From the NCBI GenBank assembly GCA_025449595.1, contig JANWJC010000105.1:1-47462 (forward strand): a stretch of 47,462 nt of DNA, given 5' to 3'. The stretch comes from Acidobacteriota bacterium (GTDB taxonomy: Bacteria > Actinomycetota > Actinomycetes > S36-B12 > CAIYMF01). Positions 28,322 through 46,334 of this stretch are shown here, piece by piece (the stretch's first letter is position 1; each line of letters starts with the position of its first letter). A program made the translations under genes and the position numbers. The notes beneath the pieces were generated by a model. That model saw only the letters and a program-made list of their open reading frames with translations, was not told the DNA's origin and searched no databases.

Positions 28322-28933
28322 TCAGTCGATTCTCGTGCCCAAGAGGTACCTCACCGTCTGCCATATCACGCGAAGGGTTGCTGCCATCGACGGGTCGGCC
28401 AGGTACGTGAGGTCACAACGGACCCTGGCAGGCACCAGCACCTCGAGGTAGTAGCGCTCAGGGTCGGCGTCCGACCCCAGGACAGCAAGGTCCCGAAACC
28501 GGATCTGCGTCGGCCCGGTCAGGCCCGGGCGGTAGTCGAACACCCATCGGTACGCGTCGGGATAACGAGCTGCAAGCGGCAGTGTCTCTGGCCTAGGCCC
28601 GACAAGTGTCATGTCTCCGCGTAGCACGTTCACCAGCTGGGGGAGCTCGTCCAGACTTGATCGTCGAAGTACGCGGCCCATCCTGGTGACCCGGCCGTCG
28701 GAGGCTGACGTCACCTGCGGCCCGGAGGTGGCCGTGCGCATCGATCTGAACTTGCACAGGGTGAAGGGCTCACCGCCTTCTCCGACGCGCGTCTGACGGA
28801 ACAGGGCCGGACCGCCATCCGACAGCCTGATCAGAACTGCGATGATCACCAGCAGCGGGGCCAGCAGCACCAACCCCGCAGATGCGGTCAGGACGTCGAA
28901 CGTCCGACGCAGGAACCCAACCCCCGGTGTCAT
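28322..28933 (-). CDS. Small monotopic phosphoglycosyl transferase (bacterial sugar transferase family, PglC/WbaP-C-like); initiating enzyme
   Basis: Start trimmed to the ATG at 28933, 2 nt after the upstream stop. Motifs: DVLTASAGLVLLAPLLVIIAVLIRL, GPALFRQTRVG, FTLCKFRSM, DELPQLVNVLRGDMTLVGPRP. Confidence 0.85.
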   Translation of the reverse strand: MTPGVGFLRRTFDVLTASAGLVLLAPLLVIIAVLIRLSDGGPALFRQTRVGEGGEPFTLCKFRSMRTATSGPQVTSASDGRVTRMGRVLRRSSLDELPQLVNVLRGDMTLVGPRPETLPLAARYPDAYRWVFDYRPGLTGPTQIRFRDLAVLGSDADPERYYLEVLVPARVRCDLTYLADPSMAATLRVIWQTVRYLLGTRID

Positions 28934-28935
28934 GC

Positions 28936-32637: not shown

Positions 32638-33647
32638 CTGGCCACTCCGGAGGTAGCGAGCAGCTCTGAGAGAAGGCTCAGGTGCAATCGCGCGAACGAG
32701 TCCTGGTCGGATCGGATCGCGATCTCCGCCAGGCCAAGGAGAGCGGCAGCACGCCAGAGCTGCGCTGGGAGGCCGAGCGACTCGACGGCCTCGGTCAGGA
32801 ACCGCTGGACCAGATCGGGATACCAGCCGCGTCCGGTGAGTGCCCAGCGCAGCCCGTCGCCCCACCGACCCGCACGCAGACCGCGGTGACCGGCCACGGG
32901 GTGTCCCTGGCGGGTATGACGGTCGAGATAGAGGGAGTAGGACAGAACGAAGCGAGCCCAGTCCCGGAGCGGGTTCCCGATGGCATCAGCGTGCTCCCAG
33001 TCGACGACTCCGCTCACGCGCGAGCCGCTCGCCAAGATATTGCCGCACCAGAAGTCTCCATGAACGACAGCCCCAAGGGACGAAGTAAGCGAAGCCTCGA
33101 TCTCTCGGAGCGGTCCAAGGACGGGACTCAGTTCGGACCTGTCAGGCCATCGGTCGGACAGGAGGCAGGACCAGGGATCGCGACGGTCCGTGGACATGGT
33201 CTCTTGCCGGCGCAGGCAACGGAGCCAGGCACGAGCGGTAGCGAAGTCCTTCTCGACGAGCGCCTGTCGCCCCGTGTGGCGCCACGCGTGGTAGGCGACC
33301 GACATCGGCGTGCCAAGGAGCACGTCAGTCACCATCGCCGGCAAACCCTGGTGTTCCAGCACGGCCAGCAACCGTGGCACGGTGGATTCTGCAGCGCCGA
33401 GCTGCGAACGGTCCAGAGATGACAGGAAGGCTGCCTCGCGCAGGACGCTCTGCCCTGCCCGATCTGTCATGGCCAGCTTGACGGCAACGGTCGGCTGGTG
33501 TGCGCCGTCAGGCACCAGCAGCATTGTGACTTTCGGGTTGTCGTCCTTCGACGCCGCAATGATGATCACCTGCGACCCAGGTGCGACCCGCGCTGCCAGC
33601 AGTTGGCCGGCCCCCGCGGAGCGTCGAAGCACGTCGCTGGTAGTCAT
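32634..33647 (-). CDS. Aminoglycoside-phosphotransferase-fold (APH/choline-kinase-like) kinase
   Basis: Start trimmed to the ATG at 33647 (ATGA overlap). The Brenner motif HGDFWCGNIL is followed by VVDWEHA. Confidence 0.7.
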   Translation of the reverse strand: MTTSDVLRRSAGAGQLLAARVAPGSQVIIIAASKDDNPKVTMLLVPDGAHQPTVAVKLAMTDRAGQSVLREAAFLSSLDRSQLGAAESTVPRLLAVLEHQGLPAMVTDVLLGTPMSVAYHAWRHTGRQALVEKDFATARAWLRCLRRQETMSTDRRDPWSCLLSDRWPDRSELSPVLGPLREIEASLTSSLGAVVHGDFWCGNILASGSRVSGVVDWEHADAIGNPLRDWARFVLSYSLYLDRHTRQGHPVAGHRGLRAGRWGDGLRWALTGRGWYPDLVQRFLTEAVESLGLPAQLWRAAALLGLAEIAIRSDQDSFARLHLSLLSELLATSGVAR

Positions 33648-34111
33648 CTGACTCGTCCGAGGGCCAAACGCTGCGGTAGCACCGCGCTGAGAACACCGGG
33701 CGGCAGGCGTCGAGCCAAGGAGATGGCCAGGTAGGCGGGGCCTGCCGACCAGGCAGCGCCGGGCGGGACGGTCAGGTAGTTGCGCCAGCTCCACAGCATC
33801 GTGGTCGAGCTGTCCTGCACCACTATGACGGGACTGTCGAGCGACGGAAGGACTACATATTCGTCGACAAGCTCTACCCCGGCATTTTGGAACATGCGAC
33901 GAATACGGCGACGACTGCCCAACCGTCCATCAGCAGCCGCGACCACGGTGCCCGGCGATGCTTCCGAGATGCGACGGTTGGCAATCGCCGTGCTGCTCCG
34001 TCCACCTGTGAGACGTATCCGAATACAGTCGTCGGGGACCAGCACGGACAGAGCAGGTTCGGCAGCAGCGAAGGGGGAGCCGTCGACCTCGAGCGTCAGC
34101 CGGCGCGTCAC
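33644..34111 (-). CDS. Hypothetical 155-aa protein, translationally coupled to the APH-fold kinase
   Basis: A GTG at 34111 lies just downstream of the GT4 stop (TAA 34119-34117). The rest of the 307-aa track ORF overlaps the GT4 gene out of frame. No family was recognised. Confidence 0.4.
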   Translation of the reverse strand: MTRRLTLEVDGSPFAAAEPALSVLVPDDCIRIRLTGGRSSTAIANRRISEASPGTVVAAADGRLGSRRRIRRMFQNAGVELVDEYVVLPSLDSPVIVVQDSSTTMLWSWRNYLTVPPGAAWSAGPAYLAISLARRLPPGVLSAVLPQRLALGRVR

Positions 34112-34116: not shown

Positions 34117-35295
34117 TTACGCCGCCCTCGACGGGGTACCAACTGGCTCGGAACCGTATGCCTCTTCCAGCACTCGCCCGAGCGTCGCAGGTACGTAACG
34201 GTCTCCTATCTGCAAGCGGCCAAGTTCGGCCATCCGTGCGGTCTGGTCCGGCTTGTCCAGCATGTGCTGGATCGCCCTGGCAAGTAGGTCGGGGCGCGCA
34301 GGCGGCACCAACAACCCGGTAACACCGGGGACCACTACGTCGGACACACCGTTCACCGCTGTCGCAACAACCGGCAGGCCGCACATCTGAGCCTCGAGAA
34401 CAGCGCACGGCAAGCCCTCGTACCGACTGGCCATCGCGAAGATGTCGAATGCCGGCAGCAGCTCCGGCACGTTCGCGCGTTCCCCGAGGAGCCGCACGCG
34501 ATCCGCAACTCCATGGCGAGCAGACCAACGCACTGCATCCTCGGCCAGCGGGCCACCCCCGATCCACACCAGGATCGTCTCGCGGTCACGGAGCCTGGCG
34601 AGGGCCTCTATCATGTGCTCAGGCGCCTTCTGGTAGTCCAGCCGACCAACGGTGCCGACGACGGGGGTGTTCGGGCCGATTCCCAGTGAGGTTCGAGCGT
34701 GCTGCCTCGACGTTGGATTGACGCGAGCGATACCGAAGTCGATCGCGGGACCGATCGTCCTGATGCGCGCGGGATCCGCAATCCCCCGTCTGATGGCCTC
34801 CACGGCAACCCCTGTTCCCACCGCGAAGAAGAAGTCCGTAATTCTCGCCAGACGCTGTTCGCACAGCACGTATGCACTACGCCGTGGCCACGACTGAAAC
34901 TCGTGGAAGGGAAAACCGTGGAAGGTATGAACGATACGCGGGACACCTGCCCGATGGGCAGCGACCCGCCCGAGTGCGCCCGCCTTGGCGCTGTGGGTGT
35001 GGACAACGTCGAACTTTCCTTCCGACAGCAGGGCCGTGAGCGTCCCGAGTGCTGAAAAGTCCTCTCGCGGGCTGATCGGCGAGACCAGCTCTGGCACGAG
35101 GATCACCTCGAAACCCGCATCACGTGCGCTGTCGAGCAGCCGGTTCCCACTACCCGCGATCACCGTGACCTGGTTGGCAGATGGGTCGAGGGCCGCCGCG
35201 CCATATAGGGCTACCCCTCCTGCACCGGCCATGAACCGTGTGACGACCTGCGCCACCCGGCGCGGCCGACTGCGCCCGCAGAGTTCGGTCAGCAT
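34117..35295 (-). CDS. GT4-family (GT-B, group 1) glycosyltransferase
   Basis: Start trimmed to the ATG at 35295. The EX7E-type block SRYEGLPCAVLEAQMCGLPVVAT is present, with an N-terminal GGV/H..F.G donor-acceptor domain pattern. Confidence 0.8.
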   Translation of the reverse strand: MLTELCGRSRPRRVAQVVTRFMAGAGGVALYGAAALDPSANQVTVIAGSGNRLLDSARDAGFEVILVPELVSPISPREDFSALGTLTALLSEGKFDVVHTHSAKAGALGRVAAHRAGVPRIVHTFHGFPFHEFQSWPRRSAYVLCEQRLARITDFFFAVGTGVAVEAIRRGIADPARIRTIGPAIDFGIARVNPTSRQHARTSLGIGPNTPVVGTVGRLDYQKAPEHMIEALARLRDRETILVWIGGGPLAEDAVRWSARHGVADRVRLLGERANVPELLPAFDIFAMASRYEGLPCAVLEAQMCGLPVVATAVNGVSDVVVPGVTGLLVPPARPDLLARAIQHMLDKPDQTARMAELGRLQIGDRYVPATLGRVLEEAYGSEPVGTPSRAA

Positions 35296-36263
35296 GCGAC
35301 TACACCGTCCAGGCGCAGATCCCGCAGGCGGGTGCCAACGCACGCTGGCAGCACGACCTCCGCACAAGGAACGCTCGCGGTCAGACGGGCTGCGACCTCA
35401 CCGACGGGCGGGTGCGGCGGTCCGAGGCCGGTACCGAGTGCGAGGGTCGCAGCGAACGCCCAGTATCGCCGGAGCTCCCCAGCAGCGTAGGTGCCGGCCG
35501 TGAGGACTCGAGCCGCCTGCAACGCCGGGACGGAGCGAACGACAGCTTCGGCTTGATCCCCTCGCGTCAGTACGACGACCAGGTCCGCTGCCAACGCGTC
35601 AGCACGCTCCCCCCATGGCACTTCCCGGCGCCCGTGGGACATTCGACGGCCGGTCCCGCCTGCAATGCGTAACGGCTCGACGACGCCCTCTAGGGTGGCA
35701 CCGTCGCTTACACAGAGGTTGTCGGACACTGCCATGCCGCCCAGAGCGAGCTCTGCGGCCAGCAGCGTCGACTTCCCCGTGCCGCCGGGTCCAGCGAGAA
35801 CGACTCCCGAACCGCCAACGAAGAGTGCCGAAGCATGAAGCGGAACTCGCCCCGTGACGCTCGCCCACCACATTGCCGGATACTGCAGCAAGACAGCACG
35901 GGCGAGCAGGTGGTGTCGCGACGGCGACGCAACGTTGAGTCCGCGATTGCGGAAGTCAGGCCGGCTCCGCGCAACGACGTACGCGCCACGGCTCGACGGT
36001 TCGACCAACAGGTCGAGGCCGGAGGAGCATGCGTCCTCGACGATGACCCGCCCGTGGCTGGTCCAGGCGCCGCGGGTCAAGGGAGTCCAGCCCTTGGTCG
36101 GAAACGCGGCCTTGGCGGCCTCCACCCGCACACTCACCTCCACGACCGACGTGGCGCTCAATGCTGGGGCACCGACCAGCGCCTCGTCCACGACGGAGCG
36201 AAGTCGATTCGGTACGCAGTCCACCGCGACGTTGACACCGGCACTGCGGAAGCTCCTAGTCAC
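35289..36263 (-). CDS. HPr-kinase-C-terminal-like P-loop protein (HprK-related kinase family)
   Basis: LHASALFVGGSGVVLAGPGGTGKSTLLAAELALGGMAVSDNLCV resembles the HprK/P C-terminal catalytic core (LHA..V....GVLL.G.SG.GKST....L...G..L.SD). The start is approximate (GTG 36263, overlapping the upstream TAG). Confidence 0.55.
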   Translation of the reverse strand: MTRSFRSAGVNVAVDCVPNRLRSVVDEALVGAPALSATSVVEVSVRVEAAKAAFPTKGWTPLTRGAWTSHGRVIVEDACSSGLDLLVEPSSRGAYVVARSRPDFRNRGLNVASPSRHHLLARAVLLQYPAMWWASVTGRVPLHASALFVGGSGVVLAGPGGTGKSTLLAAELALGGMAVSDNLCVSDGATLEGVVEPLRIAGGTGRRMSHGRREVPWGERADALAADLVVVLTRGDQAEAVVRSVPALQAARVLTAGTYAAGELRRYWAFAATLALGTGLGPPHPPVGEVAARLTASVPCAEVVLPACVGTRLRDLRLDGVVAC

Positions 36264-38205
36264 GCGTCCGCTCCGACGACTGCGCAGCCGGCGGACCGCT
36301 CGATTTGACCCGCGGTTCGGGATTGCCATCTGCTGCTTCGCTGGAATCAAAGGTGAGGGCGCTGCTCGGCCTGCCGGTGACGAAGACCTCGACATGCCCT
36401 CCCGCCATGGGCGCTGTCTCAATACCGGCCGGAGCCCGGAACCGCGACGCATCACCACTGTGGGTGGCACCCTTCTCCGAGGGTGTGCTCGACAGGGGCA
36501 CTATCAAGTCTTCAGGGCCATCACCAGCTGGCACCCCGCCCGCCCCATCGAACTTCCCGTTCGGACTTGCTCCGACGCGGACTTCACCCGTGGGCATTCC
36601 ACGCGAACCAGCCGCGTTGTCATCCGACCTGTCGGGCACCGGCACTCGATCCGCGGCTGTGGATCGGGAACCATTTGCTGCCTTCGCCGCGCCCGCGGCC
36701 ACGAGGGCCTCAACGGCCGTATCGGACAGGACAATACGGTCGGCGTGATCTTGCCCCGACGCTGGTATCGAGGGACTTGATGTCCCCGCCTTCGTTCCGG
36801 CATTCTCCTGGTCAGTCCCGGATGTGGTATCGGTACCCACGGGCTGGGGGTCAATGGCCGCAGAAGTCAGGGCCGACTTGGAGGTCGCGCCGCGGGGGCC
36901 ATCCGCCTCGACAGGCGCCGGAGGCAACGCGATCGATCCCCGAACTCCCAGCACCGCCAGCAAGGGACGACCAGCGACGACCAGCTGATCTTCAACCTCT
37001 CGGAGGCGGGACACACGGGTACGACGGGCGACGAGCAAGACGAAACCGGCATGAGGATCGCTGGCGGCAGAGAGATCGGCGGCGCTCTCAGGCCGCCACC
37101 GCACCGTGGTGGCCGGTTCCGACGTGCCCTGCGCCACTGCCTCCGCTCCCGGCGAACGTGATCCGACAGCCTGCACTTTGGACTGCGGCGGAGCCACAGA
37201 GCTCTCGCCGGCTGCATCTATGCCGCCATTTGCCAGCTGCCAAGCCGCACTGACGGCTGACGTGTCGGCAACTGGGCGCACCGACAGCACGACTATGGCA
37301 TGAACATTGAACTCGTCGGCGAGTTCAGACAGTCGACGGGACGGGCCTACGAGAGAGCGCTTTGCCTTGGATCCGAGGTCACCGAGATAGGGAACCCCCA
37401 GCTTCTCGGCGGCTTCGCGCGCGTTCGTGACTCGCGGCCGCAGACTCTCCATGGCCCCTGCCAGAGCGATCGCCAGCAGTACCCCGAACAGCAGCGCGAG
37501 ACCCAACCGCTGCAGCAGACCCGATGGGTCGGGGCCATCAGGGGTGGTAGCGGGATCGACCACTCTGGCCACCGGCGGCTGAGTCGTCAGAACAGCGAGC
37601 TGGCTCCGCTGAGTCCGCAGTGCGCCGAGCTCAGCGTCCAGCGATGCAAGCTGAGCCTGTAGGCTTGGATTGCTCGGCCCTGCAGGCGCGCCCAGCAATT
37701 GCTTGGCAACGCCGTCCCGCTGCTGCTGAGCCTTGCCGATCTCTTGGTCAACGATCGCGAGGGCTGATTGGGTGTTAGCCAGGGCATCCGTGTTGAGCAT
37801 CATGACGAGCTGCGCCGACAGCGACGTCACAACCCGCTGAGCGGACTGAGGATCGGTGTCCGCAACGGTGATGGCGACGATCGGGGACACTCCGATGCCA
37901 GCGACCTGGATGTTCTCGGTCGCAAAGACCGTCGGATCCTCGACAAGTCCTGACGAGCCGGCAGCCATCGCCTGCGTGACGACGGACGGGGCAGTAACGA
38001 TCGCGGCAGCCCGTGCGCTCCCCGCCGAGGCCTCGGTCGCGGAGCCAGCGAGATCAGCGGCGACCTGCACCCGGCTCACCGACGTGTATGTGGTCACGCT
38101 TCCCCGATGGACCCCGAGCACCAGGAGCAGCGGGACCACCAGGCACACAATCACGATCCACAAGTGCCCTCGGACAATTCTTGAGAAGGCCTGGCCGGCT
38201 GTCAC
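36256..38205 (-). CDS. Polysaccharide co-polymerase (Wzz/PCP-2-like). It has two TM helices around a coiled-coil periplasmic domain, a degenerate BY-kinase-like domain without a P-loop, and a long disordered Tyr-free tail.
   Basis: TM1 is IVIVCLVVPLLLVLGV. The Gln/Leu-rich coiled region is QLASLDAELGALRTQRSQL. TM2 is LGLALLFGVLLAIALAGAM. KLGVPYLGDLG follows, then HAIVVLSVRPVADTS where GxxGxGKS/T is expected, and GFVLLVARRTRVSRL...LLAVLGV. Confidence 0.6.
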   Translation of the reverse strand: MTAGQAFSRIVRGHLWIVIVCLVVPLLLVLGVHRGSVTTYTSVSRVQVAADLAGSATEASAGSARAAAIVTAPSVVTQAMAAGSSGLVEDPTVFATENIQVAGIGVSPIVAITVADTDPQSAQRVVTSLSAQLVMMLNTDALANTQSALAIVDQEIGKAQQQRDGVAKQLLGAPAGPSNPSLQAQLASLDAELGALRTQRSQLAVLTTQPPVARVVDPATTPDGPDPSGLLQRLGLALLFGVLLAIALAGAMESLRPRVTNAREAAEKLGVPYLGDLGSKAKRSLVGPSRRLSELADEFNVHAIVVLSVRPVADTSAVSAAWQLANGGIDAAGESSVAPPQSKVQAVGSRSPGAEAVAQGTSEPATTVRWRPESAADLSAASDPHAGFVLLVARRTRVSRLREVEDQLVVAGRPLLAVLGVRGSIALPPAPVEADGPRGATSKSALTSAAIDPQPVGTDTTSGTDQENAGTKAGTSSPSIPASGQDHADRIVLSDTAVEALVAAGAAKAANGSRSTAADRVPVPDRSDDNAAGSRGMPTGEVRVGASPNGKFDGAGGVPAGDGPEDLIVPLSSTPSEKGATHSGDASRFRAPAGIETAPMAGGHVEVFVTGRPSSALTFDSSEAADGNPEPRVKSSGPPAAQSSERTRD

Positions 38206-38371: not shown

Positions 38372-39961
38372 CTACGTGCGGCTGGGAGCGAGTGGACGAA
38401 CCTTCAGGGGGGAGCATCGCGCGTTGAGGCACTCCCCTGATTCCAGGTCGAACTCGAAGTTGTGCCCAAGGCACCGCAGGACTCCGTCGGACAACACCGC
38501 CGATTCCGACAGATCCTCACCCGCATGGGGGCAATACCTGCTCACGGCGACATCTCGGTCCCTAGTCCGATCCCTCAACACCACCATGTCGTCTGGATCT
38601 CGACCGGTCTCGTACTCCTCGATCGCTGCCAGTGCGGAGGGGTCAGCATGCTTGAGTAGACCCACCAGGTAGTCGTTGTACAGGTCTGGTTCACGCCAGG
38701 CTGAGAACCGTAGGGACAGGAAAAGATCTTCCCAGCGGATCTCTCCCGTGAGTACCGCATCCAGCCATCGGGCCTCGACCGCGAAACCGTAGCTCGCCAG
38801 TCGCCCCTTTGCTCGGTCCACCCCTACCCCATCCGGCCCCAGCCGCACATCCCAGGTGCCTCCCGCATCACCGGCCACCTCGAACCGCACAGTCATGCCG
38901 ATCCGCTCGAGGAAGTAGTTGCTCATGCCACCGAGGCGCATGAAGTGATCTTCGAAGCGTTCATAGAGCGCTGAGCCAGAGGGCGGATCGGGGTACCGGG
39001 CGTACGTCGCACTGATGTCGTCACTACGTTGGCGGGCATAGCGGTCCAAGTAGTCATCGCAGTCGTCGAGGCTGAAGTCAGCCCATTCAGGGCTACGGGT
39101 CACGGCCTCGCTGCCAAGCTCTATCGCATCTCCTGGCAGCAAACACAGAGCGCTCTGCTCAGGTATTCGCTCCTGCAACCAGGTCAGTGCCTGTCCCTGG
39201 TGCGGGAAGACGCCCGGCTCGCGCATCTGGAGATTGTGACGGCGGAGCGAGTCGTCGAGAAAACACGGCGGCCCCGCATACGGCAGTACCAACCGCGGTC
39301 GTACCCCGCGCAGCATACGCACTACAGCTCGGAACTTGGACCGACGCTTGTCCGCGCCGATCCGCGCCGACACGTCCGAAGGGTAGTCGTAGCATATCGG
39401 ATGCCAGGAGGCACCCGACATCTGCACACCCATCAAGTCGAGCTGGTGGCCGACCTCTTCCGACGCTCGCCTTCCCTGGCTGACGGTGAGCCGCGCGTCG
39501 TTCGTATGCATGATCGCGAATCCATTGACCACGACAAGGATCGCAGCGTCGTGACACATCGGCGACTGCTCGGGGATCACCGTCAGCCAGTCACCACCCG
39601 GATTCAGCTGCAGCCGTTCCCACGCTCCCACCTCGATGACGTTGCGGACCCCTGCTCGGGCGAGTCGCCCCCGCAGTACGCCGGAGGGATAGCGCGGAAT
39701 CACAACCCGAACACGGTCCGGGAGGGTAGGTAACAGATCCAGGTCAAGGTGATCCAGATGCTCGTGGGAGACAGCCACCCAATCACAGTCAAGCATCTGC
39801 TTCGTCGCCAGATGACTGTTGTCCGGGAATGGGAACCAGCTGCCGAGGAACGCTCCCCCCTTGGACAGCCATGGATCGCACAGCACTCTCACGCGCGAGG
39901 TCTCGATCCGCAACCCCGCATGTCCAAGCGACGTCACAAATGGCGCCTCCCGCGAAGACAT
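38372..39961 (-). CDS. MBL-fold (Lactamase_B_3/UlaG-like) domain fused to a C-terminal Rieske [2Fe-2S] domain; NamH/CMAH-like candidate sugar-nucleotide hydroxylase
   Basis: The N-terminus is LGHAGLRIE...VLCDPWL...VAVSHEHLDHLD. The C-terminus is YCPHAG...LRCLGHNFEF (CxH ... CxxH Rieske ligands). Confidence 0.65.
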   Translation of the reverse strand: MSSREAPFVTSLGHAGLRIETSRVRVLCDPWLSKGGAFLGSWFPFPDNSHLATKQMLDCDWVAVSHEHLDHLDLDLLPTLPDRVRVVIPRYPSGVLRGRLARAGVRNVIEVGAWERLQLNPGGDWLTVIPEQSPMCHDAAILVVVNGFAIMHTNDARLTVSQGRRASEEVGHQLDLMGVQMSGASWHPICYDYPSDVSARIGADKRRSKFRAVVRMLRGVRPRLVLPYAGPPCFLDDSLRRHNLQMREPGVFPHQGQALTWLQERIPEQSALCLLPGDAIELGSEAVTRSPEWADFSLDDCDDYLDRYARQRSDDISATYARYPDPPSGSALYERFEDHFMRLGGMSNYFLERIGMTVRFEVAGDAGGTWDVRLGPDGVGVDRAKGRLASYGFAVEARWLDAVLTGEIRWEDLFLSLRFSAWREPDLYNDYLVGLLKHADPSALAAIEEYETGRDPDDMVVLRDRTRDRDVAVSRYCPHAGEDLSESAVLSDGVLRCLGHNFEFDLESGECLNARCSPLKVRPLAPSRT

Positions 39962-40013
39962 GTCTTCTCCCCATTGAGTGTCGGGACCATCGCACTTCGC
40001 ACCCGGACGTGAA

Positions 40014-41489
40014 TCAGTGCAGAACCGCCATCGGTCGCATTCGCGCTACGGGACGCACTAGTCCGAACCCGCTCATGATCTGGAGGGCGGCCGCGACACC
40101 CTTGTCGTCCAGGTGCGGGACAGTCGTCGGAGCCCGGTCGTCGTAGCGGAACCTCATCGTCGACCGAGCCTGCGGATCACTGGTAGAGAGTCCTGAGCGC
40201 TCGAAATGATCGATCACAGTGCCGGCACCGTGGCAGGCGGAGTGCAAACTCGTGGCGGAGTCCTTTCCTGCAACGGCAAGGTACGACGAGGTGCGATGTG
40301 TCCCGGGCAGCAGTACAGCCTGCCCTGTGCGGGCAAAGGTCGTGCCAACAGGCATCCGATCGCCAGGATACGCACGGCACGAGTTGTGCCGGTGAACTAC
40401 CCCTAACTGGCCATCGACCTCCTCCTCGTAGACCGAGTTGTGCGGGGAGTCAACGACGAGACGAGCTTGACCGCCGCCGAAGACCCGAGTGGCCAGGCGT
40501 TGGAGCGCAGCATACGTGGAAAGGCGGAACGCGAAGCCATAGTTCATCGCTGCGGCGTTTGCCAGCATCAACCGCTGCCCCTCGTCGCTAGCAAGCTCGA
40601 CGGGAGGACACCCCTTAGAAAAATACAGCCGTAGGCGCTCCTGAAGCTGATCCTTCGAACGCGCCGTTCGAAGATGGTACAGCGGTTTGCTGACCGCCAT
40701 GACTGCTCTCATCGAGCGTGCGTAGTCCTCGCGACGACCGAAAAGATGGCCGACGATGCCGGTCATGACCCCGCCACCTGCGTGGTACTGGATCATGGTC
40801 TGCCCCAGCCGCACCCCGAGGGCAGCAGCCCGTTCCTCGTCAATGATCTCCTCGACCTGCTGCAGCTCGACGAAGTGGTTCGTCGGACCTATCGTGCCGA
40901 ACCGCAACCGCGACAGGTGCCACGCCAGGGCGGGCATCTCACGGATCAACCGCTCCTTCCCGCCATATGGTTCCAGGTCGACGAGCCCGCTCTCCTCGAC
41001 CCGCTCCAGTTCCGCAGCGTCGACCCCGAATCGCGCGGCGGCGAATTGAGCGCCGCCGACGGCAGTTCCCACCGCCTCACTTCTTGTGAGCTCGCGACCA
41101 CCACGGGTCGGGTAGGGGTATCGCTCCCTGACTGCACGGAAGAACTCTCCGATCGCAGCATCCGTGGGACGCTCACAGTCCAGCGAGATCAGCGCCATGC
41201 CGCAGTTGAGCGACGAGCTCGTCAACGTCGGCCGAATGGTGCCAACAGTCGCCACGGCGATGCTGGAAGGCATCTCCATGTTGGACTTGTGGTGAAAGTC
41301 CGGAAGCACGACCGGCGGCGCCAGGAGATCGAACCCGAGCGTTGCCGATCGGAGTTCGCCGAGCGCCTCGGGGTCGGCGGGCAAATCTCTGCTGTCGAAT
41401 ACCCGCGGTGTGTCGAGTTCGGACTCGAGACTTCGCCGATGCGACATCTCTTCAGCCGACAGGACCCTTATGTCCATCGATTTCCTCAT
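40014..41489 (-). CDS. Divergent RtcB-family (3'-phosphate/5'-hydroxyl ligase fold) protein
   Basis: Ordered blocks are LPDFHH, SLNCGM, GTIGPTNHFVE, YHAGGG, DSPHNS, LLPGTH, SACHGAG and a C-terminal VARMRPMAVLH. These parallel the E. coli RtcB blocks MPDVHLG, DIGCGM, GTLGTGNHFIE, LHSGSRG, CHHNY, IPGSMG, SCSHGAGR and ...VCVKG, recalled from memory. Confidence 0.65.
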   Translation of the reverse strand: MRKSMDIRVLSAEEMSHRRSLESELDTPRVFDSRDLPADPEALGELRSATLGFDLLAPPVVLPDFHHKSNMEMPSSIAVATVGTIRPTLTSSSLNCGMALISLDCERPTDAAIGEFFRAVRERYPYPTRGGRELTRSEAVGTAVGGAQFAAARFGVDAAELERVEESGLVDLEPYGGKERLIREMPALAWHLSRLRFGTIGPTNHFVELQQVEEIIDEERAAALGVRLGQTMIQYHAGGGVMTGIVGHLFGRREDYARSMRAVMAVSKPLYHLRTARSKDQLQERLRLYFSKGCPPVELASDEGQRLMLANAAAMNYGFAFRLSTYAALQRLATRVFGGGQARLVVDSPHNSVYEEEVDGQLGVVHRHNSCRAYPGDRMPVGTTFARTGQAVLLPGTHRTSSYLAVAGKDSATSLHSACHGAGTVIDHFERSGLSTSDPQARSTMRFRYDDRAPTTVPHLDDKGVAAALQIMSGFGLVRPVARMRPMAVLH

Positions 41490-41494
41490 GGTAA

Positions 41495-43003
41495 TCAGTA
41501 GTCATCCGGATACGGCGCCAGATCCGGTACGGCAGCAATCTTCGGACCGTGGTAACCAGGGACGAGTTGTTCTAGCATGCGGAGGACGTCGGATCGCCTG
41601 TTAGCGTCCGCCTCATCGAGCAGGTCGGCGAGCTTCCCATGGAAGTCCCTACCAACGTCGTGCAGACAAGTCTTGAAGATGCGCGGATGAGCAGTGCTCA
41701 CGACAACCTCGTTCTCGCCGAACAGCCTTTCGTTGAGCTTCTCCCCCGGTCTCAGGCCGGTGAACCTGACTCTGGCTGGGGGAACTCCCATCTGCTCAGA
41801 GAACTTGTGCACCAGATCAAGGATGCGCACCGGTTCACCCATGTCGAGAACGAACGTCTCGCCGCCGTCCGCCAACAGTGCCGCCTCAAGGACGAGTCCC
41901 ACTGCTTCTTCGATCGTCATGAAGAAGCGCGTGGCGTCCGGATGCGTCACAGTCACGTCATCACCGTTCCGCAACTGCTCCGCGAGAACCACGAGGAGGG
42001 ATCCACGGCTCCCGAGCACATTGCCGAACCTGACAGCGGAGAAGACCGTCTCAGTCGGGCCCATGTTCTTGATCGTGAGCTCGGCCAGGTGCTTCGTCGC
42101 ACCAAGTACTGACGTGGGATCGGCCGCCTTGTCGGTGGAAATGAAAACGAACAGTGAGGAGCCGTACTCCGCTGCTGCGTTGGCTAGCAACTGGGTGCCC
42201 AGTACATTCGACTTCACCCCCTCGCAGGGATGGCTCTCAAGCATCGGCAGATGCTTCAGCGCGGCCGCATGAAATACCACATCGGGCCGAACGTCGCGGA
42301 ACAACTGCCTGATTCGTCGACCGTCACGAATGTCCGCGACGACCAGTTCTTCACTGCTCATGAGTGCCTCACCGGAGATCTCGAGCTGCATCCGATGAAG
42401 GTTCGACTCGTCATGGTCGAGCATCACCAATCGAGCCGGGGAGAATCCGAGCACCTGACGGCACAGCTCACTCCCGATCGATCCGCCGGCTCCAGTCACG
42501 AGGACGACCTTGTCGCGAATCACGGCCGCGACAGCTGGGGAGACCACGTTCATCTCCGCACGACCGATCAGCTTGCCGATCTCGAGCGCCCGCATGTCGG
42601 TACCGACAACGTCACGCTGCAAAGCAGCCACGAAGGTTGGCAGGTGACGGACGCGTACCCCGGAAGCGGCGGCGATCACCGCCAGACGGCGGACCTCCGT
42701 CGCCGGGAGGCGGGGGATCGCCAGCACGACGCACTGCACGCCGAACTGGACGATGACCTCGGTGAGGGAGCCGACGTCCCCCAGCAACGGCAGTTCCGCG
42801 TGGGCTCCCTTCGCCAGGTCGTCGTCGAGGAACCCGATCGGGGCGAGGCCGAACTGTGGGACTGCAAGCAGGTCGCGCGCGAGCGCCCTGCCGGCCTCAC
42901 CGGCTCCCACCACCAGAGTAGGCAGACCGGGCACCTGATCGAGCTTCTCGGATCCATATTCGGCGGGCCACAAATCGGCCAATCCCTCTTCAATCAGACT
43001 CAT
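41495..43003 (-). CDS. CapD/PglF/WbpM-type NDP-sugar (UDP-GlcNAc) 4,6-dehydratase, soluble form without the N-terminal TM region
   Basis: Start trimmed to the ATG at 43003 (ATGA overlap). Motifs: VLVTGAGGSIGSEL, VFHAAALKHLP, FISTDKAADPTSVLGATKHLAE. Confidence 0.8.
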   Translation of the reverse strand: MSLIEEGLADLWPAEYGSEKLDQVPGLPTLVVGAGEAGRALARDLLAVPQFGLAPIGFLDDDLAKGAHAELPLLGDVGSLTEVIVQFGVQCVVLAIPRLPATEVRRLAVIAAASGVRVRHLPTFVAALQRDVVGTDMRALEIGKLIGRAEMNVVSPAVAAVIRDKVVLVTGAGGSIGSELCRQVLGFSPARLVMLDHDESNLHRMQLEISGEALMSSEELVVADIRDGRRIRQLFRDVRPDVVFHAAALKHLPMLESHPCEGVKSNVLGTQLLANAAAEYGSSLFVFISTDKAADPTSVLGATKHLAELTIKNMGPTETVFSAVRFGNVLGSRGSLLVVLAEQLRNGDDVTVTHPDATRFFMTIEEAVGLVLEAALLADGGETFVLDMGEPVRILDLVHKFSEQMGVPPARVRFTGLRPGEKLNERLFGENEVVVSTAHPRIFKTCLHDVGRDFHGKLADLLDEADANRRSDVLRMLEQLVPGYHGPKIAAVPDLAPYPDDY

Positions 43004-44199
43004 GCTCGTCCCCCTGCCTCGCTCAGTGCCTCGCACACAGTGTCGACGTCCCCAGTGTTGAGCATGGGATGCAGCGGCAACGACAGCGTGCGAGCAAATA
43101 CCTCATCTGCGCCTGGGAGTCCCTTCGGAGGTACTTCCACCCTCCCGGAGAACCAGCTCAGTCGGTGAAGCGGGATGAAATGGACTGATGAGCCGACCCC
43201 AGCCGCCGCTAGTCGACGGGAGAGTTCGTCGCGGGATATTCCGAAATCGTCGTTGATCCTTATCGCGTACAAGTGCCATGCGTGAACCGTGTCGGACGAG
43301 CGTGGCGGCAGCAGCACACCCTCCATGTGCCCGAGGCGCAGATCATACTCGGACGCGAGCCTTCGCCGGTCCTCATTCCAGCACGCTACCTGCTTCAACT
43401 GGGCTCGCCCGATCGCAGCCTGCAGGTCGGTCATGTTGGCCTTAAGACCATCAGCAGCGACGTCGTAGTTCCATCCGCCGCCGGGGAGGTAACGCCGCCA
43501 TGCATCTTTGGTCATCCCGTGCAGGCGCGCGGCATGCACAGCGTCCGCGAACTCTTCATCGGCCGTCGTGAGCATCCCGCCTTCGCCGATGGGCAGGTTC
43601 TTTGTTGCATAGAAGCTGTAGCAGGTAGCTCGGGACAACGCTCCGACATGTCCGTCTTGTGTCAAGGTTCCGAGCGCATGGGCTGCGTCCTCGATGACCA
43701 TGGTCAACGGCAGATGGGCTGCAGTCGCGAGCTCTCGCACGTCGGCTGCGAGTCCACCCAGGTGGACTACCACCATTGCAGCAACACCACCTGCGCGAGC
43801 GGCAGCCACCTCAGTAGTCGCCGCACTCGGCATTCCTGATTCGACGTCGACGTCGACAAGCACCGGGATGTGCCCTGCGTGCATGATGGCGTGTGCCGCA
43901 CCGCAGAACGTGTTGGCAGAGAGCAGCACCTTACTCGCCGGCGCCAACCCCAGCGAACGCACGGCCAGTTCGAGTGCCGCGGTGCACGAACTGACAGCCA
44001 CCGCCCGCGGAGCGCTTACGTACCCCGCAAACTCCCGTTCGAACTCTGCTACCTGCTGTCCGGTCGTGAGCCAACCCGACGACAGGACACCGACGGCCGC
44101 CTCACGCGCCTCGTCGCAAACTGGCGTTCGGGCGAACGCCACCGGTCGGGCGACGCGAACTTCCTCTGTCAGGGCCAGCGTCGACACGGCTCCGGCCAC
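43000..44199 (-). CDS. DegT/DnrJ/EryC1/StrS-family PLP sugar aminotransferase (PglE-like)
   Basis: SSGWLTTGQQVAEFEREFA and the catalytic Lys block FYATKNLPIGEGGML. The start is uncertain (GTG 44199 or downstream GTGs). Confidence 0.85.
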   Translation of the reverse strand: MAGAVSTLALTEEVRVARPVAFARTPVCDEAREAAVGVLSSGWLTTGQQVAEFEREFAGYVSAPRAVAVSSCTAALELAVRSLGLAPASKVLLSANTFCGAAHAIMHAGHIPVLVDVDVESGMPSAATTEVAAARAGGVAAMVVVHLGGLAADVRELATAAHLPLTMVIEDAAHALGTLTQDGHVGALSRATCYSFYATKNLPIGEGGMLTTADEEFADAVHAARLHGMTKDAWRRYLPGGGWNYDVAADGLKANMTDLQAAIGRAQLKQVACWNEDRRRLASEYDLRLGHMEGVLLPPRSSDTVHAWHLYAIRINDDFGISRDELSRRLAAAGVGSSVHFIPLHRLSWFSGRVEVPPKGLPGADEVFARTLSLPLHPMLNTGDVDTVCEALSEAGGRA

Positions 44200-44286
44200 C
44201 TCCCACTCTCTGTCCCAGTGCGTCTATTGACAGACTAGGAACGACGGAAGTCGGAGGCACGCTGCCCACGGCCTACTCGCACTACG

Positions 44287-44964
44287 TCATTGGCGGGAGC
44301 CGGCGTGCGTCGGCACCAAGCCGAGAAGCCCCGTTTCGCGCGCACGGGCGACGGCGGACAGTGACGAGTGAACGCCAAGTTTCTGAAGTACCCGTTGAAC
44401 ATGCGTCCGTACCGTATTTTGCGAGAGTTGGAGCTGCCGGGCGATCTCTGCCCGGCCCATGCCGTCCACCATGCAGCTCAGGACGTCGATCTCACGGGGA
44501 GTCAGCCCCACGAGCGCCGCGGGATCATATTTGCCCGACTGTCGGGTGAGTATGTTCAAGACTCGTGTCAGCAAGCGTGCCGGAATGTATGTCTCGCCAC
44601 GCTGTGCTCCCCGGATCACATGAAGCAGCAGATCTATGGAAGCATCCTTGGGCACCCATCCCGACATTCCCAGGCGTGCCCCTTCAGCGACGAAGCTCTC
44701 GTCTTGCACACCAGTCACAAAGACGATGTGGACATCGGGCCGGCGTTGCAGGAGGTCCTCCCCAAGAGTTAGACCAGTTGTCCCGGGGGAATATCCGAGA
44801 TCATAGTCGATTACCGCGACATCCACCTTCAGGTGATCGACCATGCCAGCCACGCCGTGCTCGCTGAACGCGACGACGACGACGTCCATGTCCGGTTCGA
44901 GACTCAGGCGCGCTGCCAACGACTCCGCGAACACGACGTGATCGTCGACGACGGCAACTCTCAT
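44287..44964 (-). CDS. NarL/LuxR-family response regulator
   Basis: The receiver is MRVAVVDDH...VAVIDYDLG...FVTG...PKD. The C-terminal HTH is LTPREIDVLSCMVDGMGRAEIARQLQLSQNTVRTHVQRVLQKLGV. ATG at 44964 is preferred over the track GTG at 45015. Confidence 0.85.
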   Translation of the reverse strand: MRVAVVDDHVVFAESLAARLSLEPDMDVVVVAFSEHGVAGMVDHLKVDVAVIDYDLGYSPGTTGLTLGEDLLQRRPDVHIVFVTGVQDESFVAEGARLGMSGWVPKDASIDLLLHVIRGAQRGETYIPARLLTRVLNILTRQSGKYDPAALVGLTPREIDVLSCMVDGMGRAEIARQLQLSQNTVRTHVQRVLQKLGVHSSLSAVARARETGLLGLVPTHAGSRQ

Positions 44965-45015
44965 CGTATCGATTGCCACGTTGGGACCATCCCGCGAGTT
45001 CGGGTCCGGTGCCAC

Positions 45016-45702
45016 CTACCCATGGAGGGCTTCCGGATACGTCACCGGTATGAGATTGGGTCCGAGTTGGCCATCCCCGCGGGTGGCAACTGCTTCCCGG
45101 TCGACCAGAGCAGCCGCCTGCAGACGGGAGTTGACTCCCAGCTTCTGCAGCACGTTCTGGACGTGCGTCCGCGTCGTACTGTAACTGATCCCCATCACTC
45201 GAGCCATCTCCTTGGTGGAGTGCCCTGCGGAGATCAGGTGGAGAACTTCGAGCTCACGTGGCGTCAGGTAGCGCAGTCGACTTGGTCCCGCTCGCCTTCC
45301 AGGTGACTTCACTTCACGCAGCGGGTGCCTCCGGAGGCTGATCGGCTCACCAGCGGCCGCAAGCTTGAGCGACCTGAGGATAGTGTCGATCGACTCGTCC
45401 TTGCGAAGGAACCCGAGAGCGCCCGCTCTCAGCAGATCGGCAGCCAGCTCAGTTGGGTCCATCCCCGACAGCACGACGATCGCGGTACGAGGTGCCACAG
45501 ATGCGATGTTGCTGACCAGTGTCATGACGTCACCCTCTGGGAGTCCGACGTCAACGGTTACGACGGCTGGCCGAAAGTCCAATACCTCCTCTATGCATGT
45601 CGACGCGGAAGTCGCGATCCGAACCTCTTGGCCACGCTCGATGAGGGCTAGCGCGATGGCTTCGAGGAACAGCATGTGGTCATCGAATACGACGATCCTC
45701 AT
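45016..45702 (-). CDS. NarL/LuxR-family response regulator (paralogue of the downstream one)
   Basis: MRIVVFDDH...VVTVDVGLP...VVLSG...LRKD, followed by LTPRELEVLHLISAGHSTKEMARVMGISYSTTRTHVQNVLQKLGV. The ATG at 45702 overlaps the kinase stop (ATGA). Confidence 0.85.
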   Translation of the reverse strand: MRIVVFDDHMLFLEAIALALIERGQEVRIATSASTCIEEVLDFRPAVVTVDVGLPEGDVMTLVSNIASVAPRTAIVVLSGMDPTELAADLLRAGALGFLRKDESIDTILRSLKLAAAGEPISLRRHPLREVKSPGRRAGPSRLRYLTPRELEVLHLISAGHSTKEMARVMGISYSTTRTHVQNVLQKLGVNSRLQAAALVDREAVATRGDGQLGPNLIPVTYPEALHG

Positions 45703-46334
45703 CTTCCGGCCCCGTCCCAAGCGTCAAGTGAGACTGCTACTTGATATCCGCGACCGTCGGGTTTCGCAGAACTGATCCGCGCTCCACAGGGGATCGCAGC
45801 CGTTCGAACGATCGTCAACCCGAGGGAGGTGCGCGCGGCAACGCCGCCGATGCCGGGGCCGTCGTCGGCAACGGTGACCACCACATTTTGGCCCCGATGA
45901 AAGACCTGCACTTGCACGGTGCCGGCGCCGGCAGCATGGATCGCATTCTCCAGCAGGTTCTCGACGATTCGGCCCAGTCCCACCTCACACGTCCAAGCGT
46001 TCAACCTGGGCGCAGGATCGAAGTAGATCATTGCTGAGCTCGTGATCTTCGCGCGGGCGACGACGTGCGCGACCACATCCGAGACATCGACGATCGTTCG
46101 CGGCTCCGCCGGCTCGAGCCCCACGTCGATGACTGCTGAGAGCCAGTCGCACTGACCGACGATCGCATCGAGGCGGCGCTGCGTGGCGTCGACGTCGTCG
46201 ACGGCGATGCTCGCGAGGACTCGCACTGCTGCGACGGCCTGCCGGAGGTCATGGCACACTGCCCGGAGCGGCTCGGGCCCGCCCGGGGCTCCCTCGGCCA
46301 ACAGCGGCCGTTGCCCTACGTCGATCCTGCGCAT
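45699..46334 (-). CDS. Minimal histidine kinase (DHp plus HATPase_c only; no TM or sensor domain)
   Basis: 211 aa. The H-box is AVCHDLRQAVAAV, the N-box ENLLENAIHA, and G1 VADDGPGI. No ATG, GTG or TTG lies upstream in frame before the stop at 46437-46439. Confidence 0.75.
   Translation of the reverse strand: MRRIDVGQRPLLAEGAPGGPEPLRAVCHDLRQAVAAVRVLASIAVDDVDATQRRLDAIVGQCDWLSAVIDVGLEPAEPRTIVDVSDVVAHVVARAKITSSAMIYFDPAPRLNAWTCEVGLGRIVENLLENAIHAAGAGTVQVQVFHRGQNVVVTVADDGPGIGGVAARTSLGLTIVRTAAIPCGARISSAKPDGRGYQVAVSLDAWDGAGR

Follow-up and report, generated by a model that had tools for sequence, protein, structure and literature searches.

The window analysed here, a stretch of DNA 47,462 nucleotides in length, raises the question of why an open reading frame (ORF) resembling the RtcB ligases lies among the genes of a Wzx/Wzy-type envelope glycan cluster. 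To our knowledge, no characterised RtcB acts on anything but RNA or DNA ends. The evidence leans, by a modest margin, toward the reading that the RtcB-like protein is a neofunctionalised enzyme dedicated to the glycan pathway rather than an RNA repair ligase; its mechanism, substrate, nucleotide, and product are inferred, in the absence of biochemical data.

The ORF occupies positions 40014 to 41489 and encodes 491 aa, as the initial annotation had stated; it lies on the minus strand and opens with an ATG. It is a true RtcB-family protein, as shown by its Pfam match and its predicted fold. The Pfam RtcB profile (PF01139) matched with E=6.6e-43 and 147.9 bits (cutoff 27) over profile positions 16-424 of 426, a similarity that chance could not produce, and phmmer against the PDB returned Pyrococcus horikoshii RtcB (1.6e-24). 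An AF2 model (pLDDT 76, pTM 0.79) was compared with the PDB using Foldseek, and all 16 of the 16 significant matches were RtcB/RTCB structures (TM ~0.6, E ~1e-22); residues 240-264, a variant-specific insert, were modelled with low confidence. The checks that the initial annotation had proposed for family and structure were thus passed, with fold matches in the PDB to RtcB only. Within the family, the protein falls in a distinct variant clade. Its identity to canonical RtcB is 20-24%, and all NCBIfam RtcB models scored far under their cutoffs, including PRK09588 (77 vs 407), release_rtcB (51.6 bits vs 271.8), and RtcB_rel_intein (82.7 vs 1150). Homologues begin with MD(L/I) and an AGGAAA sits between the two ATGs of the ORF, and the second ATG, at 41477, is therefore probably the real start. 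The upstream CapD/PglF-like ORF (Polysacc_synt_2) ends at 41495, 5 nt from the RtcB-like ORF, and an MBL-SCP2-Rieske ORF begins at 39961, 52 nt from it. Both spacings had been described from the raw ORF and held, with the likely second-ATG start widening the first gap to 17 nt.

Alignment to P. horikoshii RtcB recovered, in order, all five motif blocks quoted in the initial annotation: SLNCGM (S93-M98), GPTNHF (G201-F206), HAGGG (H236-G240), SPHNS (S348-S352), and SACHGAG (S417-G423), which align to C98, N202/H203/F204, H234, H329/N330, and H404, respectively. The nucleophilic His (H404 in P. horikoshii, H428 in human RTCB) corresponds to H420, within C-H-G-A-G, and shows no variation in the close-homologue alignment (A1); it occurs in 98% of the 61 variant sequences. 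Among the five metal-binding residues of RtcB (D95, C98, H203, H234, and H329 in P. horikoshii; D119, C122, H227, H259, and H353 in human), four are kept as C96, H205, H236, and H350. The fifth ligand, Asp95, is replaced by Ser93, and this Ser is invariant in the close clade and present in 87% of variant sequences. The earlier statement that the Asp of the DIGC block and the Gly-rich loops had been replaced was borne out, with the SRG after H234 of P. horikoshii RtcB reading GGG here; a second proposed check, that of the nucleophile and metal residues, found by sequence alignment the His and four of the five ligands, the absent one being the Asp already flagged. In human RTCB, ligation requires all five metal ligands, including the Asp95 equivalent (10.1101/2023.03.30.534986). 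Because this Asp is missing, guanylylation may be impaired or different in the RtcB-like enzyme, a possibility that counts against our favoured reading.

Comparison of the 61 variant sequences with 69 canonical RtcB sequences separated the retained residues from the remodelled ones. Positions common to both sets were D65, H67, N97, C98, N202, H203, F204, E206, H234, H329, N330, R350, R355, S385, and H404-G-A-G. Four canonical residues were swapped in the variant clade (D95 to S, R238 to G, K351 to H, and Y451 to D), and R408, R412, K452, and K480 were lost or variable; K68, E72, R253, K268, H272, R285, R306, and H368 were invariant in the variant clade only. The insert following H236 is also longer than in canonical RtcB. 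The GTP-pocket roles of P. horikoshii N202, E206, S385, Y451, and K480 are in part general background, and the role of N226 in the pocket of human RTCB has been reported (10.1101/2023.03.30.534986). The nucleotide contacts N202, E206, and S385 are kept as Asn204, Glu208, and Ser402. At the Y451 position, the residue is Asp, and K480 is His or Asn in the actinobacterial clade, remaining Lys in ~46% of the wider variant clade; because actinobacterial members lack both the guanine-stacking Tyr and the C-terminal Lys, nucleotide specificity is uncertain, a second point against our favoured reading. Arg238, Arg408, and Arg412 (E. coli R189, R341, and R345) are understood to serve on the substrate side. 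These positions are Arg in 86-100% of the canonical sequences and variable or absent in the variant set, and they are Gly240, Thr424, and His428 in the RtcB-like protein. The canonical residues of the substrate side are replaced, and new invariant basic residues have been gained; we infer, from sequence alone, that the RNA-type pocket has been lost.

The loss of one metal ligand and of several nucleotide-pocket residues could point to a pseudoenzyme, a catalytically dead scaffold that merely organises a membrane complex. This explanation is all but excluded, because the His nucleophile, Cys96, the three metal His residues, and the Asn/Glu/Ser contacts remain invariant or nearly so down to ~30% identity, which would not be expected of a dead protein. 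The catalytic core of the clade is under selection.

The surrounding minus-strand genes (28322-44199) comprise the components of a Wzx/Wzy-dependent glycan cluster. A small PglC-like polyprenyl-phosphate phosphoglycosyl transferase (28322..29083; Bac_transf E=9.1e-53, EPS_sugtrans under cutoff) is predicted to initiate synthesis, alongside a Wzx-type MOP flippase with many predicted transmembrane segments (30044..31678; Polysacc_synt_3 E=6.3e-8), a Wzy-type polymerase or O-antigen-ligase-like membrane protein (31348..32865; Wzy_C E=7.6e-12), and a GT4 glycosyltransferase (34117..35367; Glycos_transf_1 E=1e-35). The Wzz-like chain-length-determinant membrane protein (36256..38205) has two hydrophobic segments and only weak NCBIfam chain-length-determinant matches, and its homologue in another locus (L008) matches Wzz and GNVR. 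Sugar modification is represented by a CapD/PglF-like UDP-HexNAc 4,6-dehydratase (41495..43036; Polysacc_synt_2 E=2.1e-97, PseB and FnlA under cutoffs) and a DegT/PseC-like sugar aminotransferase (43000..44199; PF01041 E=4.7e-95). A lipoprotein of unknown fold (28936..30063, minus strand), with a signal peptide and a lipobox-like LLCAC, is kept in the cluster and has no match in Pfam, NCBIfam, or the PDB. The MBL-SCP2-Rieske protein (38372..39961, minus strand; Pfam Rieske, Lactamase_B_2, and SCP2_Rv3818), whose closest PDB sequence is NAPE-PLD (1.8e-6), is a variable accessory. Two LuxR-type response regulators and a histidine-kinase fragment (44287..46334, minus strand; GerE and Response_reg, each twice, and HATPase_c) sit upstream of the cluster and are kept there in most actinobacterial loci. 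Pfam scans of the main ORFs of the window found no RtcA, RtcR, or archease domains, in agreement with the initial annotation, and PrfH context was also absent; the window contains no tRNA genes and no Rfam matches. No NTP_transferase-type sugar-phosphate nucleotidylyltransferase was found in the cluster by Pfam scans.

The initial annotation had also noted two kinase-fold proteins in the operon, and both were confirmed. The first (32634..33794, minus strand) is an APH-family, aminoglycoside/macrolide kinase-like phosphotransferase (PF01636, E=2.4e-13), to which macrolide 2'-phosphotransferase and hygromycin 4-O-kinase come closest among PDB sequences, each with a weak match. The second (35289..36263, minus strand; 324 aa) is a PEPCK/HprK-related P-loop protein with a weak NCBIfam HprK_rel_A match and the motif PLHAS...GPGGTGKSTL. 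Its family profile matched PEPCK (5.5e-5) and HprK (9e-4) in the PDB, and its AF2 model (pLDDT 91.7) matched ATP-PEPCK (E=5e-8) and HprK/P (E=8e-6) by Foldseek, with a better resemblance to whole two-domain ATP-PEPCK than to HprK. A PEPCK/HprK-type fold with a P-loop is thus shown, while kinase activity is inferred. HprK-family kinases are not known to act on sugars; their known substrates are proteins or peptides, which counts against our favoured reading. Other kinases recurring near RtcB-like genes are APH-like and Rph/PEP-synthase-like.

The association of the RtcB-like gene with these neighbours extends well beyond this window. Close relatives are encoded in 182 species genomes, from which the best 80 loci, all from Actinomycetota, were retained, and neighbours were counted in the 50 actinobacterial species loci that had 9 kb or more of sequence on each side. 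Of these 50 loci, 49 carried HprK-like, APH, and GT4 genes near the RtcB-like gene, 48 carried CapD and DegT, and 44 carried Wzy; the genes for Wzx and the priming transferase frequently fell outside the examined flank. The linkage survives in two different gene orders and across many actinobacterial genera, and linkage to glycan genes also appears in Eisenbacteria and Acidobacteriota loci. In contrast, 61 canonical RtcB control loci had no HprK-like, APH, Wzx, Wzy, priming-transferase, or CapD neighbours. The association of the RtcB-like gene with glycan genes and with the PEPCK/HprK-like kinase is therefore both tight and specific, and a third proposed check, recurrence of the glycan linkage among homologues, was passed for CapD and DegT. 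The proposed MBL-Rieske part of that linkage failed: this gene adjoins the RtcB-like gene in this window only and is elsewhere distal, on the opposite strand, or absent, which ruled it out as a core partner.

These neighbourhoods bear on a conservative alternative, namely, that the protein is an ordinary RNA/DNA 3'-phosphate/5'-OH ligase that travels with the glycan operon or regulates it at the RNA level. Family membership and the retention of the nucleophile and most metal ligands support this alternative, as does locus L099, where an HprK-like gene lies beside a canonical-type RtcB with no visible glycan genes; the pairing of kinase and RtcB may thus be older than any function in glycan synthesis and might have other targets, which also weighs against our favoured reading. 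Against it stand the near-universal linkage across two gene orders and into Eisenbacteria and Acidobacteriota together with its absence from the canonical controls, the fusion of clade members to a membrane flippase, the loss of canonical Arg238, Arg408, Arg412, Tyr451, and Lys452, the failure of every NCBIfam RtcB model, and the lack of any RNA element, rtcA, rtcR, or archease near the gene in scans of the window. We consider an RNA ligase very unlikely.

Rosetta-stone fusions and translational couplings were present among distant clade members. In Candidatus Eisenbacteria, a Wzx flippase is fused to an RtcB-like domain (P0183, in two assemblies) within a DegT/PGT-CapD/Wzy/GT4 cluster. A second fusion joins an HprK-like to an RtcB-like domain and is followed by Wzx (P0137), and elsewhere an HprK-like domain is fused to a UbiA prenyltransferase ORF beside RtcB-like and Wzx genes. 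An HprK-like gene lies directly upstream of the RtcB-like gene in L083-L087, L089, L091, L092, L100, and L165-L168. In three independent loci (L081, L090, and L102), the RtcB-like gene is followed by a CDP-alcohol phosphatidyltransferase-family gene, with an overlap of 1-8 nt or a gap of 8 nt; enzymes of this family turn NDP-activated phosphates into phosphodiesters. In L166 and L167, genes for UbiA, polyprenyl synthase, and GGR are linked to the RtcB-like gene. Radical SAM/SPASM genes occur near the distant loci L083, L165, and L166. A SynChlorMet peptide-maturation cassette was rejected for the distant loci: the HprK-like proteins gave weak matches to HprK_rel_A/B and PEPCK and to nothing else, whereas the radical SAM genes match many models, all far under cutoff.

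A protein or peptide substrate was also considered. Under this alternative, the HprK-like kinase would phosphorylate Ser/Thr, and the RtcB-like enzyme would link the resulting phosphate to a hydroxyl, on a glycan or elsewhere (phosphoglycosylation), or would process the phospho-residue in some other way. The closest characterised relatives of the kinase-like partner include HPr kinase, a protein Ser kinase, lasso-peptide kinases are known to belong to the HprK-like family, and the radical SAM/SPASM genes mentioned above fit such a scheme. However, the model of the partner is nearer to whole two-domain ATP-PEPCK, a small-molecule kinase, than to HprK, no precursor peptide or target protein candidate is conserved in the actinobacterial cluster, and the fusions involve a flippase and a prenyltransferase rather than peptide-processing domains. 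This alternative is very unlikely.

The kept catalytic core, the lost RNA-type pocket, and the fixed place beside kinases and a flippase together make a non-RNA substrate probable, and we infer, without having shown it, that RtcB-like chemistry is likely used on a phosphorylated sugar or lipid. The putative pathway would operate at the cytoplasmic face of the membrane. The PEPCK/HprK-like and/or APH-like kinase would phosphorylate a hydroxyl, either on a polyprenyl-diphosphate-linked repeat unit or on a small precursor, to give a phosphomonoester, and an NTP would charge His420 of the RtcB-like enzyme with a nucleotide monophosphate; the retained contacts Asn204, Glu208, and Ser402 point to GTP as the likely donor. 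His420 would then pass the NMP to the phosphate, giving an R-O-P-P-nucleoside intermediate, and attack by a hydroxyl would yield a phosphodiester, a step that either the RtcB-like enzyme or, where one is coupled, the CDP-alcohol phosphotransferase-like partner would catalyse. The modified unit would finally be flipped by Wzx and polymerised by Wzy. The initial annotation had suggested that such an enzyme could create a phosphodiester or otherwise ligate a phosphorylated intermediate, be it glycan or lipid; this remains an inference, albeit one strengthened by the fusions and couplings.

The enzyme might instead perform activation only, acting as a phosphomonoester nucleotidylyltransferase that halts after the second step of the RtcB pathway and delivers an NDP-activated donor, such as a GDP-sugar from an APH-like/HprK-like sugar phosphate or a GDP-polyprenol resembling CDP-diacylglycerol, to GT4 or to a CDP-alcohol phosphotransferase-like protein. 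The cluster contains kinases but no NTP_transferase-type sugar-phosphate nucleotidylyltransferase, which supports this alternative, as do the translational coupling to CDP-OH_P_transf-family genes in three loci and the UbiA, polyprenyl synthase, and GGR linkage in two others. The lost arginines point the same way, being those thought to position the second RNA end, and stable 3'-pp5'G caps are a known product of canonical RtcB on DNA. Conversely, the actinobacterial cluster, this window included, lacks a CDP-alcohol phosphotransferase-like gene, and GT4 enzymes normally take ordinary NDP-sugars. We regard activation only as unlikely; nevertheless, the present evidence does not distinguish it from full ligation.

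The favoured reading, a phosphodiester-forming RtcB-like enzyme, can be placed against known systems. With canonical RtcB (E. coli, P. horikoshii, and human RTCB), the protein shares the Pfam family, the fold, the nucleophilic His, the Cys and three-His metal site, and the Asn/Glu/Ser contacts, and the sequence from His-NMP through phosphate-pp-N to a phosphodiester is presumed only. Unlike canonical RtcB, it carries the Asp95-to-Ser substitution, replacements of Arg238, Arg408, Arg412, Lys351, Tyr451, and Lys452, new invariant basic residues, and the longer insert, and it lies not in an rtcA/rtcR/archease/PrfH context but in Wzx/Wzy glycan clusters with kinases. Specialised paralogues offer a precedent both for new substrates and for nucleotidyl transfer to phosphate as an end point: RtcB2-PrfH serves in ribosome repair in bacteria (PMC9304027), and the RtcB paralogues of Myxococcus include the 5'-phosphate-capping RtcB3. 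These paralogues have nevertheless remained nucleic-acid enzymes and have the canonical pocket intact.

Decoration of glycans through CDP-alcohols is familiar from the LicA kinase, LicC cytidylyltransferase, and LicD transferase, from the CDP-glycerol-dependent teichoic acid enzymes, and from the CDP-alcohol phosphatidyltransferases. By functional analogy, these systems share with our proposal the logic of a kinase, nucleotide activation, and a phosphodiester in an envelope polymer, and the parallel extends to the APH-fold kinase of the cluster and to the CDP-OH_P_transf genes coupled to RtcB-like genes in three lineages. The RtcB-like enzyme would differ in activating through a covalent His-NMP rather than a Rossmann-type nucleotidylyltransferase, and in this window the transfer step may be its own as well. 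Heal-and-seal RNA repair likewise combines a polynucleotide kinase with a ligase (Pnkp/Hen1, T4 Pnk/Rnl), resembling the P-loop kinase that is paired, and at times fused, with a nucleotidyl-transfer ligase here; however, a PEPCK/HprK-like protein takes the place of the polynucleotide kinase, and the setting is membrane glycan assembly.

A bolder reading, on which we find the evidence evenly poised, is that RtcB chemistry (His-NMP formation, phosphomonoester activation, and hydroxyl attack) has been recruited outside nucleic-acid metabolism, with a widespread clade and PEPCK/HprK-like kinases at Wzx building linkages, either phosphodiester or NDP-activated, into the lipid-linked glycans of the envelope. 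Searches of bioRxiv and the open PMC literature returned no report of a link between RtcB and either glycan synthesis or HPr-kinase-like partners. The cluster occurs in at least 182 sequenced species, several of its member proteins are of unknown function, and its hosts include culturable Kribbella, Terrabacter, Intrasporangium, and Dactylosporangium, leaving the hypothesis open to direct test. A glycan- or lipid-phosphate ligase, if confirmed, would also be a useful tool enzyme. If the reading is correct, the known substrate range of the RtcB fold would extend to phosphates on sugars or lipids, and the enzyme so far lacking for some phosphate-bearing envelope polymers made without classical nucleotidylyltransferases would be accounted for. 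Actinomycetota, Acidobacteriota, Eisenbacteria, and other lineages would then make phosphate-containing cell-wall polymers by an enzymatic route not recognised before.

The 491-codon open reading frame at 40014-41489, on the minus strand, belongs to the RtcB family, as revealed by a significant match to Pfam RtcB (PF01139) covering nearly the whole profile (E=6.6e-43, 147.9 bits, cutoff 27), by sequence matches to the solved P. horikoshii RtcB structures (1uc2/4dwq, E=1.6e-24), and by an AlphaFold2 model (24 homologues as input; pLDDT 76, pTM 0.79) whose structural matches in the PDB were RtcB/RTCB entries only (TM ~0.6, E ~1e-22). Every NCBIfam RtcB model scored far under its cutoff against this protein. 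The frame, its family assignment, and the intergenic gaps of 5 nt and 52 nt on either side had been proposed in the initial annotation from sequence alone, and all of these held. The true start of the gene is likely to be the second ATG, at 41477, rather than the annotated ATG at 41489, because homologues begin with MD(L/I), that is, at the position of Met5, and because a Shine-Dalgarno-like AGGAAA sits between the two ATGs.

All the RtcB motifs quoted in the initial annotation were found, and they map to P. horikoshii RtcB as claimed: SLNCGM to C98, TNHF-E to N202, H203, F204, and E206, YHAGGG to H234, SPHN to H329 and N330, and ACHGAG to H404. The claim that the Asp of the DIGC block is replaced also held, Ser93 standing in place of Asp95. 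In human RTCB, ligation needs all five metal ligands, Asp included (10.1101/2023.03.30.534986), so its loss genuinely sets the window protein apart from canonical RtcB. A pseudoenzyme was among the rival readings weighed here, and the conservation of the protein speaks against it: among more than 1500 matching database proteins, the closest 120 share 64-78% identity (all source names given were actinobacterial), and these close homologues are highly conserved (mean column identity 72%), with all catalytic residues invariant. Comparing 61 sequences of the divergent variant clade with 69 canonical RtcBs (P. horikoshii numbering), we found D65, H67, N97, C98, N202, H203, F204, E206, Q208, H234, N290, R296, D326, H329, N330, E335, H349, R350, R355, S385, and H404-G-A-G to be common to both classes. 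Conserved only in canonical enzymes were D95 (Ser in the window protein), R101, S237, R238 (Gly), N295, K351 (His), G352 (Asn), R408, R412, Y451 (Asp), K452, and K480; conserved only in the variant clade, in the numbering of the window protein, were K68, E72, S75, S76, M98, R253, K268, H272, R285, R306, H368, N369, and R485, several variant-only residues lying in a longer insert after H236. From this partition, the nucleotidyl-transfer core of the variant clade is strongly selected, and it is the substrate-facing side of its pocket that has been remodelled.

The gene lies in a complete Wzx/Wzy-type cluster, all on the minus strand, which runs from 44199 down to 28322 and encodes, in order, a DegT aminotransferase, a CapD/PglF-like dehydratase, the RtcB-like protein, an MBL-SCP2-Rieske protein, a Wzz-like protein, a P-loop protein, a GT4, an APH-family kinase, Wzy, Wzx, a lipoprotein of unknown fold, and a small PglC-like phosphoglycosyl transferase. 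The P-loop protein (35289-36263, 324 aa) gave a confident AF2 model (pLDDT 91.7) resembling whole ATP-dependent PEP carboxykinase (E=5e-8, TMq 0.4-0.5) and also the HPr kinase/phosphorylase catalytic domain; sequence profiles agree weakly with this PEPCK/HprK assignment, and precomputed annotation places the protein in Pfam PF27840 (ScmC). The nearest solved relatives of the APH-family protein, by weak matches, are antibiotic sugar-hydroxyl kinases, and that of the MBL domain of the Rieske protein is NAPE-PLD, a phosphodiesterase. The lipoprotein (28936-30063, 375 aa), which carries an LLCAC lipobox-like signal and is present in most related clusters, had no Pfam, NCBIfam, or PDB match. Between the GT4 stop and the first position at which the APH-like ORF could start lie 322 nt (33795-34116); the sole ORF spanning this gap (33644-34567) is atypical in codon composition (GC3 0.61) and lacks a Pfam match.

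Upstream of the cluster are two LuxR-type response regulators and a histidine-kinase fragment; together with the glycan genes, these form an 18-kb compositional island (~28300-46300) with a GC of 62-67% and GC3 of 0.70-0.75, whereas the housekeeping genes at 1-28 kb (purH, purN, sucCD, pcrA, guaA, ABC transporters) have 70-72% and ~0.9. This difference suggests that the island was acquired horizontally. Among the housekeeping genes are also a DUF222/HNH endonuclease ORF (20238-21758), of the kind that characterizes mobile repeats in actinobacteria, and a 1047-aa ORF (13322-16465) with a faint S-layer-like match only. A secreted beta-helix/PKD protein of 1400-1600 aa, conceivably a glycan lyase or hydrolase, is encoded after the RtcB-like gene in loci from Kribbella and Terrabacter (L059, 11379-15683; L001, 11492-16279); all that the window has in its place is a PKD-domain ORF at the right edge (46591-47433).

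With one genome scanned for each species, a close relative of the RtcB-like protein occurred in 182 species, and the best 80 loci were all from Actinomycetota (Terrabacter, Intrasporangium, Kribbella, Dactylosporangium, Nonomuraea, Jatrophihabitans, Nocardioidaceae, and others). Neighbors were sought with the window's own proteins, by tblastn and by purpose-built HMMs, and counts were restricted to the loci whose flanks reached at least 9 kb in each direction, 50 in all. The HprK-like P-loop protein, the APH kinase, and GT4 were each present in 49 of these, CapD and DegT in 48, and Wzy in 44; Wzx (35), the lipoprotein (32), and the priming transferase (31) often lay just past the fetched flank. 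Two gene orders were observed, DegT-CapD-RtcB-...-Ploop-GT4-APH-Wzy-Wzx and DegT-CapD-Ploop-GT4-RtcB-APH-Wzy-Wzx, with the RtcB-like gene within the cluster in both. The proposed CapD and DegT linkage thus recurs; its MBL-Rieske part failed, as that gene adjoins the RtcB-like gene only in the window. Against a further rival reading, that of an ordinary RNA ligase, Pfam scans of the window's main ORFs detected no RtcA, RtcR, or archease domain, in agreement with the initial annotation, and the window holds no tRNA gene or Rfam match. As a control from a metagenome scan, 61 canonical RtcB loci (D-I-N-C, HGAGR, AYK) showed no HprK-like, APH, Wzx, Wzy, priming-transferase, or CapD neighbor, whereas 20 distant variant-clade loci, averaging only 9 kb, contained the P-loop gene in 10 cases, Wzx, Wzy, and GT4 in 8 each, and APH in 7. 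The linkage to glycan genes is therefore conserved and specific to the variant clade. On the 7-kb contig L099 (2001-4465), translational coupling links an HprK-like P-loop gene to an RtcB of canonical type (Pfam 303 bits) that retains HGAGR and AYK. Around it lie an OmpR-type regulator and a TolC-like gene, and glycan genes are not visible on the contig, which leaves room for the kinase/RtcB pairing being older than the glycan role.

Distant members of the clade display fusions with the same partners. P0183 (996 aa, Candidatus Eisenbacteria, two assemblies) joins a Wzx/MOP flippase to a C-terminal RtcB-like domain within a Wzz/DegT/PGT-CapD/Wzy/GT4 cluster, and in P0137 (885 aa) the P-loop protein and an RtcB-like domain form one fused polypeptide, with a Wzx gene next. 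In the subclade that includes the Wzx-RtcB fusion (P0183, at L081 10001-12991, and also P0193 and P0256), the metal-binding Cys98 is changed to Asp (SVNDGM), a second metal-site change. Four further loci, one of them from an Acidobacteriota MAG, have the P-loop gene immediately upstream of the RtcB-like gene; in two of the four, L166 and L167, Wzx is immediately downstream. In both of these, the RtcB-like and Wzx genes adjoin a UbiA prenyltransferase and an Rph/PEP-synthase-like phosphotransferase; at L167, the UbiA ORF is fused to the HprK-like part, and genes for a polyprenyl synthase and a geranylgeranyl reductase lie next to it. These neighbors hint that the substrate is a lipid carrier and not a sugar. 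Three independent loci without a P-loop gene instead couple the RtcB-like gene to a CDP-alcohol phosphatidyltransferase-family gene (PF01066, 29.6-30.8 bits, cutoff 22) by a 1-8 nt overlap or an 8-nt gap. This coupling counts in favor of the rival reading of activation only, and suggests that in some lineages the enzyme makes only an NDP-activated intermediate, a partner completing the transfer. One of the three loci, on a low-GC (41%) groundwater contig (L090, 7917-12772), carries two RtcB-like paralogues on the same strand, ~1.1 kb apart, followed by a CDP-alcohol phosphatidyltransferase-family gene, inside a GT2/epimerase/GT4 cluster.

Our data show that this RtcB clade is catalytically conserved with a remodelled pocket, and that it is genetically locked to lipid-linked glycan assembly, kinases, and flippase. 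What the enzyme does is inferred: it would direct RtcB chemistry at a phosphomonoester that is not RNA. First, a kinase would make R-O-P; His420 of the RtcB-like enzyme would take NMP from an NTP and pass it to the substrate phosphate, and hydroxyl attack on the activated phosphate would yield a phosphodiester. The NTP is inferred to be GTP, probably, because N204, E208, and S402 are kept, although the altered stacking Tyr and C-terminal Lys make this uncertain. The phosphomonoester may reside on a glycan, a small alcohol, or a polyprenyl carrier, the data not discriminating among these; a protein or peptide substrate was also weighed, as a rival reading. Public records name the homologues "RtcB family protein" or "tRNA-splicing ligase RtcB" and the P-loop partner "hypothetical protein", and bioRxiv and open PMC full text (subscription literature being outside the search) contained nothing tying RtcB to polysaccharide synthesis or HPr-kinase-like partners. 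If the inferred chemistry is true, it would, to our knowledge, give the RtcB fold its first role that does not involve nucleic acids.
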